Part shown: piece by piece, positions 30,132 through 32,162 of the stretch
Position numbering within the stretch: the stretch's first letter is position 1
Layout of the letters: every line of letters begins with the position of its first letter
Source of the DNA: SAR92 bacterium BACL16 MAG-120619-bin48
GTDB taxonomy: Bacteria > Pseudomonadota > Gammaproteobacteria > Pseudomonadales > Porticoccaceae
Length of the DNA stretch: 64,000 nucleotides
Direction of reading: 5' to 3'
Assembly: GCA_001438605.1 (NCBI GenBank)
Contig: LIDE01000017.1
Span: forward strand, 1,513 to 65,512
Program-made: the position numbers and the translations under genes
The notes under the pieces: generated by a model
What the model was told of the DNA's origin: nothing
The model's input: the letters and a program-made list of their open reading frames with translations, nothing else
Databases searched by the model: none

Positions 30132-32162
30132 CTACCCAAACAACGACTTCAACGCCGCCAACGATTCCGCACCCTTAACCTTATTATCTTCCTCGCTCAT
30201 CGGCGCGCCGCCGCCGATTCTTATCAAATCATCTTGTGGGAGTTCTTCGACGAAGCGGCTTGGGGTGGTTGAGGATGTTTCGCCGAATTGGGTGCGCTGG
30301 CGGGCGCTGGTCATGGTGAGGGTGCGTTGGGCGCGGGTGATGCCGACGTAGGCGAGTCGTCGTTCTTCTTCGATTTGGCCGCCTTCTATGCTGTTGCGGT
30401 GGGGTAGGATGTCTTCTTCCATGCCGATCATGAAGACGTGTAAAAATTCGAGTCCTTTGGCGGCGTGGAGGGTGAGGAGTTGTACTTTGTCGTCGGCTGA
30501 TTCTTCTTGTTCGCGGTCGAGTATGTCGCGGAGTATGAGTTTGGCGATGGCGTTTTCGATTTTGCTGTCGCCGTTTTCTTCGTCGGTGGCGGTTTCGTCG
30601 TTCTTGAGTACTTGGGCGAGTTGATTGAGTAAAAACTGCACATTTTCGTAGCGCTTTTGTGCCACGTGGTCGCTGCTGGCGTTTTGTTGCAGCCAGCCGA
30701 GGTAGTCGATGTCGTCGAGCATTTCGTTGATGGCGGCGATGGGTTGGCCGTTGTAGACGTTGCGGTTGATATTTTGGATCCAGTGTTTAAAGCGTTTTAG
30801 GCGCTCTAAGTTGTTGGCGGGCATGGTGGCGCTGAGGCCGACTTCGTCGATGGCGTCGTAGAGTGAGATATTGCGTTTGTTGCTGTACTCGCCGAGTTTT
30901 TCAAGTGTGGTGGGGCCAATCTGTCGGCGCGGTGTGTTGATGATGCGCAGCATGGCGTTGTCGTCGTCCGGGTTAATGATTAACCGCAGGTAGGCCATGA
31001 TGTCTTTGATTTCGGTTTTGGCGTAGAAGGATTGGCCGCCGGTAATTTCGTAGGGGATGTTCTGCGCTTGCAGTTTTATTTCGAGTAATTTGGCTTGGTA
31101 GTTGCCGCGATAGAGTACGGCAAAGTCGCTGTATTTGCAGCGGCGTTTCAGGCGCATATCAATAATTTCGTTGACGACGCGCTCGCATTCACCGTCTTCG
31201 TTGTCGCTGCTGATAAAGCGCAGTGGGTCGCCTGGGCCGAGTTCGCTCCACAGGGCTTTGCTGATGAGGTGCGGGTTGTTCTCGATGAGGGTGTTGGCGG
31301 CTTTAAGTATGCGGCCTGTGGAACGATAGTTTTGCTCTAGTTTGATGACGTTTAGGCGCGGGAAATCTTTTTGCAGTTGCATCAAATTTTCTGGGCGTGC
31401 GCCGCGCCAGGCGTAAATCGACTGGTCGTCGTCGCCGACCACGGTGAGTGATTGGGTTTCGTTGACGAGGGTTTTTACCAGTTCGTACTGGGCGAGGTTG
31501 GTGTCTTGGTATTCATCGACAAGCAGGTAGCGAATGCGTCGGCGCCATTTGGCGAGTATCTCGGGCTGGCTACGAAACAGTAGCACGGGGGTCATGATGA
31601 GGTCATCGAAGTCGACGGCGTTGTAGGCTTTGAGTGCGCGCTGGTAGCGTTCGTAGAGCATGGCGAGGGCTTGCTCGCCGGTGCTGTTGCTGGCGCCGAC
31701 GGTTTGGTGCGGTTCGAGCAGGCTGTTCTTCCAGTTGGAAATGGTGCTTTGCGCGGTGTCGATGAGCTTTTCGTCGAGTTCGGTGTGGCGAACGAGGAGT
31801 TCTTTGATGAGGTTGCGGCAGTCTTCTTGGTCGAGAATGGAGAAGCCGGCTTTGAATCCGAGGGCTTTGATTTCGCTGCGGATAATGGTGAGGCCGAGGT
31901 TGTGAAAGGTGGAGACGGTGAGTCCTTTGCCTTCGGTTTTTCCGAGTAGGCTGGCGACGCGCGCTTTCATTTCGCGGGCGGCTTTGTTGGTGAAGGTGAC
32001 GGCGGCGATATTGCGCGCAGGAATGCCGCACTCTTCGACGAGGTAGGCAATTTTGCGGGTGATTACGCTGGTTTTACCGCTGCCCGCGCCGGCGAGCACG
32101 AGCAGCGGGCCGTCGATATATTTCAGCGCGGCCTGCTGTTGGGGGTTGAGATTTGGCGACAT
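30132..32162 (-). CDS. rep: ATP-dependent DNA helicase Rep
   Basis: AGAGSGKT, VDEYQDTN, VGDDDQSIY, TLHAAKGLEF and EERRLAYVGITRA; 676 aa Rep-type length. Confidence 0.93.
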   Translation of the reverse strand: MSPNLNPQQQAALKYIDGPLLVLAGAGSGKTSVITRKIAYLVEECGIPARNIAAVTFTNKAAREMKARVASLLGKTEGKGLTVSTFHNLGLTIIRSEIKALGFKAGFSILDQEDCRNLIKELLVRHTELDEKLIDTAQSTISNWKNSLLEPHQTVGASNSTGEQALAMLYERYQRALKAYNAVDFDDLIMTPVLLFRSQPEILAKWRRRIRYLLVDEYQDTNLAQYELVKTLVNETQSLTVVGDDDQSIYAWRGARPENLMQLQKDFPRLNVIKLEQNYRSTGRILKAANTLIENNPHLISKALWSELGPGDPLRFISSDNEDGECERVVNEIIDMRLKRRCKYSDFAVLYRGNYQAKLLEIKLQAQNIPYEITGGQSFYAKTEIKDIMAYLRLIINPDDDNAMLRIINTPRRQIGPTTLEKLGEYSNKRNISLYDAIDEVGLSATMPANNLERLKRFKHWIQNINRNVYNGQPIAAINEMLDDIDYLGWLQQNASSDHVAQKRYENVQFLLNQLAQVLKNDETATDEENGDSKIENAIAKLILRDILDREQEESADDKVQLLTLHAAKGLEFLHVFMIGMEEDILPHRNSIEGGQIEEERRLAYVGITRAQRTLTMTSARQRTQFGETSSTTPSRFVEELPQDDLIRIGGGAPMSEEDNKVKGAESLAALKSLFG

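Follow-up and report, generated by a model that had tools for sequence, protein, structure and literature searches.

Mammalian replication origins show skew jumps and N-domains, and transcription-associated mutational asymmetry is seen as an excess of C>T changes on the non-transcribed strand. GC skew also serves routinely for locating origins and termini, for recognising misassemblies in metagenome-recovered genomes and for inferring inversions of genes. Replication-associated, Lobry-type GC and AT skews shift at oriC (PMC3269012, PMC3269016), skew anomalies arise from inversions of genes or segments (Merrikh & Merrikh 2018; PMC6220195), and the strand asymmetry of vertebrate mitochondria is graded by the time that a strand spends single-stranded (PMC4182315, PMC10730292). 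Here we describe a switch of strand composition within the rep gene of SAR92 bacterium BACL16 MAG-120619-bin48. The stretch analysed, referred to below as the window, comprises 64,000 nucleotides of contig LIDE01000017.1 (C17:1513-65512) from a 2.53-Mb draft genome in 111 contigs. The point of the switch, which we call the pivot, is a record-amplitude change of origin polarity that fits none of the uses to which skew is commonly put; the gene in which it lies is intact, and such switches are seen again at several convergent junctions of the genome.

At the pivot, two oppositely polarised tracts of extreme strand bias meet, extending for about 4 kb to the left and 10 kb to the right at roughly four times the amplitude that is normal for the genome. 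Like Lobry skew, the switch has C-to-G and A-to-T polarity, with the G/T-rich strand running outward and a right arm whose sign fits the replichore. Unlike Lobry skew, it is local, far from dnaA and without DnaA boxes, the genes around it converge on the pivot, and it is missing in congeners with the same gene order. The locus also resembles an inversion anomaly, in that a block of leading-strand genes carries lagging-strand composition, with a sharp boundary, at a visibly rearranged place. Here, however, the boundary lies inside an intact orthologous gene, an oxidoreductase gene became biased after moving, and the amplitude goes beyond the rest of the genome. Since the amplitude at the pivot exceeds everything else in the genome, it cannot result from merely inverting DNA of ordinary composition.

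The bias also resembles that of vertebrate mitochondria, where, as here, one strand is nearly emptied of two bases at fourfold degenerate sites and the effect is polar and strongest near its starting point. The differences are that this is a bacterial chromosome, that the bias is bidirectional, that C and not A dominates (0.65-0.73), that G:C>C:G changes are prominent and that GC content is raised. The N-domains of mammals share with this genome sharp upward jumps followed by decay, several per genome and without matching sharp downward jumps, but here the host is bacterial and has one origin, linked to dnaA, the distances are of kilobases rather than megabases, and the genes point at the jumps. 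Finally, as in transcription-associated asymmetry, the majority of the affected genes are oriented alike with respect to the bias, whose boundaries fall close to the ends of genes; in contrast to that asymmetry, the coding strand is C/A-rich and neighbours of opposite orientation follow the DNA strand.

Two tracts of extreme strand bias meet inside an intact rep gene

Along the + strand, GC skew in 2-kb windows is -0.24/-0.26 over 26-29 kb and +0.22/+0.24 over 30-33 kb. AT skew changes in mirror image (+0.25 to -0.30), and the cumulative (G+T)-(A+C) curve of the whole window is lowest at 30231, some 100 nt within rep. At third codon positions, the highest values on both sides fall in bins close to the pivot, with + strand counts of G6 C76 A30 T8 on the left (28336-28689) and G71 C6 A3 T40 on the right (30204-30561), equivalent to skews of -0.85 and +0.84. 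The genome-wide standard deviation of 2-kb GC skew is 0.075, and the extremes of +/-0.25 are on the contig of the window. Similarly, the keto-skew jump at the pivot, measured over 5-kb arms, is the largest in the genome (0.46, compared to 0.31, 0.29 and 0.27 for the next three). On each side the G/T-rich strand is the one that runs 5'-to-3' away from the pivot, its complement being C/A-rich, and the GC content of third positions (GC3) increases from about 0.57 to 0.70-0.76 within the hyper-skewed tracts.

The rep gene is read from the minus strand and changes its codon usage abruptly. Over codons 1-650, 18-25 of each 25 codons end in C/A, except for the first 25 (14/25), while the third positions of the last 25 codons are G15 C3 A2 T5. 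A change point lies 24 codons before the stop, where the C/A-ending fraction falls from 0.81 (codons 1-652) to 0.12 (binomial P = 7.9e-13). Together with the cumulative keto skew, this change point confirms the original prediction of a real switch of C-to-G, origin-type polarity within an intact rep. Rep is full-length and collinear with its orthologues across the pivot, and its tail is orthologous to that of relatives codon for codon, at both the protein and the nucleotide level, which bears out the earlier view that the C-terminus is native. The switch is therefore a pattern of substitutions and not a junction made by assembly or inversion.

The exact Rep protein was found on many contigs of other assemblies, and in 123 blocks of the collection, in keeping with an abundant species. 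In six other independent assemblies of the species, with contigs of up to 596 kb, Rep is identical and nucleotide identity is 99.3-100%; all six loci have the gene order rpsA-ihfB-oxidoreductase-dehydrogenase-truncated sigma factor-rep-valS-holC-pepA-lptF. This agreement rules out misassembly. One strain lacks window positions 29665-30030, a 366-bp deletion that removes the tail of the sigma-factor remnant and two clustered regularly interspaced short palindromic repeats (CRISPR). A search of metagenome contigs for closer, intermediate relatives returned none above 88% identity.

The switch in rep is restricted to high-GC3 members of the genus

We compared the locus across the genus using the roughly 20 genomes in our collection. 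The ancestral order is gyrA-serC-(751 aa)-cmk-rpsA-ihfB rightward, rep-valS-holC-pepA leftward and lptF-lptG rightward. The original prediction had singled out the rep orthologues of relatives as informative, and these fall into two groups. In all seven high-GC3 genomes (this one, G002, G016, G010, G017, G006 and G004) the codon bias switches 24-62 codons before the rep stop, independently of what lies downstream of rep, whereas none of eight low-GC3 members shows a switch. In seven of the latter (G003, G009, G005, G013, G007, G011 and G015), the junction between ihfB and rep lies within one replichore, with a mild excess of G on the + strand to its left and right alike; the eighth, G008, likewise has no switch inside rep. 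The flip is specific to one lineage.

From species to species within the genus, these genes vary in GC3 between about 0.33 and about 0.70 (loci L084-L096), the pivot being found in high-GC3 species only. Loss of mismatch repair was considered as a source of A:T>G:C pressure and rejected, with mutS present here and in 18 of 20 congeners.

A relocated oxidoreductase gene has become biased near the pivot

The left arm includes a gene for a 713-aa molybdopterin oxidoreductase, which in relatives is followed by bioB. In five of five relatives this gene has an ordinary composition (coding GC3 skew about 0, third-position AT (AT3) skew about -0.35), and in four of these it lies directly upstream of bioB. 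In this genome it is located 2-4 kb left of the pivot and has a GC3 of 0.75, a coding GC3 skew of -0.60 and an AT3 skew of +0.43. Because all orthologues in relatives are ordinary, its bias must have evolved in this lineage. The species-specific changes at fourfold sites of the oxidoreductase lead almost exclusively toward C: G>C at 9/14 sites, T>C at 4/6 and C>anything at 0/30. In the right arm, saturation leaves too few sites for parsimony spectra.

Oxidoreductase (26279-28420) and bioB (39856-40977) are now split by 11.4 kb that hold rep through lptG, a separation that must have taken several steps. In addition, the proteins of the bioB block (39856-47639) are outliers compared with four congeners (mean distance of bioB 0.18 versus about 0.10), while the oxidoreductase is not, and these distances hint at mixed ancestry along the contig.

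A further comparison is offered by the congener G016, in which orthologues 8-14 kb from its pivot are hyper-skewed. The same genes are normal here, where they lie about 30 kb away behind an inserted block. G016 also has a second strong pivot, at about 320 kb on its C1, which corresponds to a weak up-jump here at window positions ~54.4-54.8 kb. The site at ~54.5 kb is a convergent junction (53214-54353 on the + strand, 54823-56346 on the minus strand) and carries lineage-specific cargo in G016.

The bias follows the strand in several zones

According to the original prediction, the bias holds regardless of gene direction. For the window this is only partly right, and dependence on the strand is clearer in G016 and in other zones of this genome. 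All genes between 17 and 30 kb are on the + strand, so that in the left arm an effect of strand is inseparable from one of gene direction; to the right, lptF and lptG are only modestly more G/T-rich than ordinary leading-strand genes (G at fourfold sites 0.43 versus 0.37). In the zones of G016, by contrast, the degree of skew is the same whichever way a gene points, and the strand component is about 0.42. Five of the eight most G/T-ending genes of the present genome lie inside hyper-skew zones, beside extreme C/A-ending genes of opposite orientation, and the + strand skews of adjacent opposite-strand genes are positively correlated (0.31 to 0.48). Genome-wide, coding GC3 skew averages -0.17 in lagging-strand genes and +0.02 in leading-strand genes, and a value of -0.6 is far outside the distribution.

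Weaker pivots of a comparable kind were located at C41 ~7.4 kb, C38 ~25.3 kb, C37 ~11.3 kb and C12 ~50.8 kb. Further zones are present at C16 ~47 kb and at the starts of C22 and C52, the latter two beginning at contig edges. The pivots on C41, C38 and C16 are at convergent junctions and those on C12 and C37 are flanked by genes that point the same way. Sharp jumps in keto skew, taken at a threshold of 0.15, number eight from C to G in the genome and none from G to C. The four most extreme reversals of codon bias at a 3' end include rep, lysR at the C38 pivot and putA at the C41 pivot.

The pivots on C41, C38 and C12 adjoin genes for extracytoplasmic function (ECF) sigma factors, FecR or both. 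A composition intrinsic to ECF sigma/FecR genes was rejected as a cause: four of about 11 ECF genes are at pivots and the others are ordinary, and the four are 26-51% identical to each other. Translational codon selection was rejected as well, in that ribosomal-protein genes favour T-ending fourfold codons (T 0.39, C 0.24 in the ribosomal-protein operon; C-fraction of NNY codons 0.49) and zone genes favour C (0.65-0.73 at fourfold sites; NNY C-fraction 0.84).

Layout of the two arms

The features of the locus are collected in Table 1, with right-arm gene calls from valS to pepA taken from locus L121. In the right arm, from rep to lptG, the sign of the skew is that of the surrounding replichore, whereas the left arm, which has the opposite sign, is made up of the rep tail, the CRISPR remnant, the truncated sigma factor, the dehydrogenase, the oxidoreductase and ihfB. 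Over the latter three genes, the third-position GC skew of the + strand is -0.60 to -0.68 and GC3 is 0.64-0.76. Further left, the gyrA-rpsA block is by rough arithmetic about 0.1-0.3 more negative than the same genes in G010, G006 and G004.

Table 1. Features around the pivot, in window coordinates
Feature	Position	Strand	Remarks
gyrA-serC-(751 aa)-cmk-rpsA block	17092..25722	+	Ancestral orientation; moderately C-rich + strand, -0.23 to -0.44
ihfB, molybdopterin oxidoreductase (713 aa), short-chain dehydrogenase (282 aa)	25901..29265	+	Hyper-skewed left arm
ECF sigma factor, cut after region 2	29512..29943	+	C/A-ending codons; fused to CRISPR remnant
CRISPR array remnant, type I-C-like, orphan	29882..30047	+	Repeat GTCGCTCCTTCACAGGAGCGTGGATTGAAAC; 2 exact and 1 degenerate copies, period 65
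rep	30132-32162	-	Minus-strand gene containing the pivot
rep, last 24 codons and stop	30132..30206	-	G/T-ending; + strand C/A-rich as in left arm
Pivot	30199..30231	.	Hairpin-forming ATCGGCG-CGCCGC-CGCCGAT (30199-30218), then TCTTATCAAATCATCTT; keto-skew minimum 30231
rep body	30207..32162	-	81% C/A-ending codons; start of right arm
valS, 136-aa open reading frame, holC, pepA	32170..37567	-	Head-on (lagging-strand); + strand third-position GC skew +0.46 to +0.58
lptF, lptG	37586..39747	+	G/T bias on + strand, weak: GC3 skew +0.29, +0.30; AT3 skew -0.39, -0.56
Right edge of hyper-skewed tract	39748..39855	.	lptG-bioB junction; synteny breakpoint

The junction between ihfB and rep is a cargo hot spot

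Almost every genome examined has cargo of its own between ihfB and rep. G002 carries an AbiE toxin-antitoxin pair and an aldehyde-dehydrogenase fragment, G010 a methyltransferase, and G016 a sigma-fecR pair, a chimera of a TonB-receptor plug and aldehyde dehydrogenase, and HigBA; a relative at 88% identity has Cas1, Cas2 and a 9-repeat array, and the species studied here has the remnant of a type I-C array fused to a truncated ECF sigma factor. Depending on the genome, the defence genes are Cas1/Cas2 with the array of 36-nt repeats, AbiEi/AbiEii or HigB/HigA (L134 10119-10700 and 10738-12039, L084 10140-12467, L004 12083-14811). Aldehyde-dehydrogenase fragments occur at the junction in two genomes. 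The chimera in G016 is a 606-aa open reading frame (L004 12991-14811) in which STN and plug domains, as in a TonB-dependent receptor, are joined to the C-terminal portion of an aldehyde dehydrogenase, and it looks like the scar of a rearrangement. The same congener retains the sigma-fecR pair at full length in this place (L004 15922-16548). No integrase was found in the cargo of five genomes. The CRISPR repeat was also considered as an element common to the pivots and discarded, the genome having no further copy of it.

Based on these comparisons, the conserved convergent junction of ihfB and rep is a hot spot for defence islands and rearrangements. Both the varied cargo in almost every genome and the 366-bp deletion in one strain indicate that it is fragile.

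The pivot is neither the origin nor the terminus of the chromosome

The original prediction had left a choice between an origin uncoupled from dnaA and a terminus with locally inverted skew, and neither survives. The dnaA gene is on another contig (C2:75.3 kb), which has a C-to-G switch of its own, of ordinary amplitude, at C2 ~65-69 kb. DnaA boxes (TTATCCACA with at most one mismatch) number 14 in the 64 kb compared with 10 expected, and none is found between 26988 and 31876, so that the pivot has no cluster of them. An origin is further contradicted by the eight low-GC3 congeners, which have the same gene order and no switch. For a terminus the polarity is wrong, as this would need a change from G to C on the + strand. 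In addition, the window contains no match to the dif consensus of E. coli or Pseudomonas, and in the near-complete, 10-contig assembly of G016 the rep locus is at 153 kb of a 375-kb contig that has a single skew sign throughout, a mid-replichore position. The pivot is thus neither the origin nor the terminus of the chromosome.

Across the assembly, a single weak dif-like candidate was found (C31:26907; AACCAGCATTATTAAAATTATGTTGAAT), which lies near a small C-to-G jump, again of the wrong polarity for a terminus.

A strand-specific process may spread outward from the junction

The explanation that we favour, tentatively and at somewhat less than an even chance, is a strand-specific substitution process that acts in situ and spreads outward from the fragile junction of ihfB and rep. 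Such a substitution or repair process would start at the junction, travel outward on both sides and be superimposed on normal rightward replication; one form that it could take is recurrent DNA synthesis during repair or restart, or single-strand exposure, at the fragile site. Repeated outward re-replication or break repair from a fixed site, as raised in the original prediction, would be one version of this process. A G/T-rich outward strand would have the geometry of bidirectional replication initiation, of divergent transcription or of the re-synthesis of resected strands, and would run contrary to that expected of convergent sense transcription or of deamination in resection tails. Several sets of observations point in this direction. 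That the bias was built in place and is lineage-specific is supported by the relocated oxidoreductase, by the contrast with distance between this genome and G016, and by the rep switch being limited to high-GC3 genomes. A tie to the strand, beyond any effect of gene direction, is indicated by the two gene orientations in G016, by the opposite-orientation neighbours in the zones and by the correlated skews of adjacent genes. Finally, the skew maxima near the pivot and the one-sided count of C-to-G jumps speak for outward polarity and local strength.

Several observations weigh against this explanation. The right edge is abrupt and coincides with the synteny break between lptG and bioB, where a smooth decay would suit an outward process better, and the margin by which the gyrA-rpsA block exceeds relatives in skew of the wrong sign changes little with distance. 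Proteins of the zones have evolved no faster and are unshifted in amino-acid composition, and no large local rise in mutation rate is visible from them. The substitution signature contains many G:C>C:G transversions and is not a clean deamination pattern. Moreover, rare variants in the right arm erode the bias, with 10 keto-to-amino changes and none in reverse in a small sample that was polarised by allele frequency only; two of the right-arm singletons were traced, in the within-species rows of an alignment, to two different strains. This imbalance suggests that the bias either is not now held by mutation pressure or is held by fixation bias. To our knowledge, no bacterial mechanism is known to write skew of this strength over 5-15 kb.

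Alternatively, the locus may have a mosaic history, in which the arms obtained their composition elsewhere or inverted, as lagging-strand DNA in a lineage or zone with strong skew, and were joined by inversion, translocation or homologous import, leaving the pivot as a historical seam. We consider this conceivable, though on the unlikely side. It would account for the rearranged state of the locus, namely the oxidoreductase split from bioB, the fusion between a truncated sigma factor and a CRISPR remnant, and a right edge exactly at the lptG-bioB break, and it is in keeping with the divergent bioB-block proteins, with the erosion of the bias by rare variants and with the precedent of inversion-derived skew anomalies (PMC6220195). 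Of the skew boundaries, the right edge coincides with a breakpoint and the region around ihfB and the oxidoreductase may do so; the pivot itself is within an intact rep whose tail is orthologous, so that no inversion endpoint can be there. Both gyrA-ihfB and rep-pepA keep their ancestral relative orientation, gyrA-ihfB being anti-skewed nonetheless, and orthologues are not matched in composition, as seen for the ordinary oxidoreductases of relatives, which place the origin of its bias in this lineage. In addition, the reversal of the rep tail is common to seven genomes with different left neighbours, and no sampled congener has genome-wide skew of the amplitude needed.

It is rather improbable that the bias is linked to transcription with the reverse of the classical sign, such that each convergent unit turns its non-template strand C/A-rich and the boundary falls where dominant rightward transcripts end, within rep and some 100 nt from its 3' end. 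This would agree with the orientation of the hyper-skewed genes, nearly all of which point at a pivot, with the relaxation of bias in their first 10 and last 30 codons, and with the presence of rep and the convergent lysR and putA among the strongest 3'-end reversals. The ancestral layout, which places the end of the highly expressed rpsA-ihfB operon some 55 nt from the stop codon of rep, also fits. The hairpin at the pivot, which is followed by a U-rich tail (30199-30230) and present in both the minimum-free-energy and the centroid fold, could mark such an end, but it was not called in a terminator scan, and the tail of putA at the C41 pivot is reversed even though the strong bidirectional terminator there is located beyond the gene. 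The sign also runs counter to the C>T excess on the non-transcribed strand: that asymmetry predicts a G/T-rich coding strand, and most zone genes are C/A-rich on theirs. Ribosomal-protein operons, moreover, are not hyper-skewed, and opposite-orientation genes in the zones follow the DNA strand, being as strongly skewed as their neighbours in G016.

For the rep tail only, the last 24-62 codons might be a replacement delivered by islands that integrate at the 3' end of rep and bring their own copy as an attachment (att) site, which we regard as very unlikely. Variable cargo beside one conserved insertion point at the rep stop, a change point that ranges over 24-62 codons among genomes and the last ~10 codons of rep, which are unusually conserved in nucleotide sequence across high-GC3 genomes, would all fit such islands. 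Against this stand the lack of an integrase in the cargo of the five genomes, the absence of a second copy of the rep 3' end, as an attL/attR-type repeat, from the window, the genome and 14 related loci, and a tail that is equally reversed where ihfB abuts rep without cargo, as in G006. Two other features that were considered for this region were set aside: the 64-kb window has no tRNA gene as an integration target, and a conserved RNA structure in the tail was rejected, with RNAalifold returning invariant pairs only (covariation term +0.88) and Rfam weak CRISPR hits only.

A true secondary initiation site, independent of DnaA and bidirectional at the junction, for example R-loop- or recombination-primed, is highly improbable. 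The origin polarity of both arms, the strongest skew adjoining the pivot and the excess of C-to-G jumps genome-wide would suit such a site, as would the arms of the G016 pivot, where a short anti-sign upstream arm and a long same-sign downstream arm fit a fork that moves against the main one and before long runs into it. However, replication direction alone cannot yield four times the normal skew of the genome, the genes on both sides would be head-on to its forks, neither a DnaA-box cluster nor an AT-rich unwinding region or initiator gene was found, and there is nothing at the same junction in low-GC3 congeners. A chimeric join at the pivot, introduced by assembly or binning, can practically be dismissed: although the genome is a draft and skew breaks serve to flag misassemblies in metagenome-recovered genomes (PMC7111523), the same sequence is present in the six other assemblies, Rep is collinear with its orthologues across the pivot, and six congeners have the same intragenic switch.

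Implications

The outward process that we favour at this junction could extend beyond this locus. It is possible, if doubtful, that in some bacteria a locally targeted, strand-specific process emanates from fragile convergent junctions that are also defence-island hot spots, writes a mitochondria-like bias over 5-15 kb on each side and creates several origin-polarity jumps per chromosome that are independent of oriC. It might take the form of DNA synthesis (break-induced, restart or gap-filling) that recurs at such junctions and proceeds outward.

Should mosaic ancestry prove to be the cause, the pivot would call for caution in skew-based inference in recombining marine lineages. If, instead, an outward process operates in situ, bacterial chromosomes would have a localised source of strand-specific substitutions, one that could be tied to the fragile sites at which defence islands turn over, and skew would offer a means of finding such sites from sequence alone.

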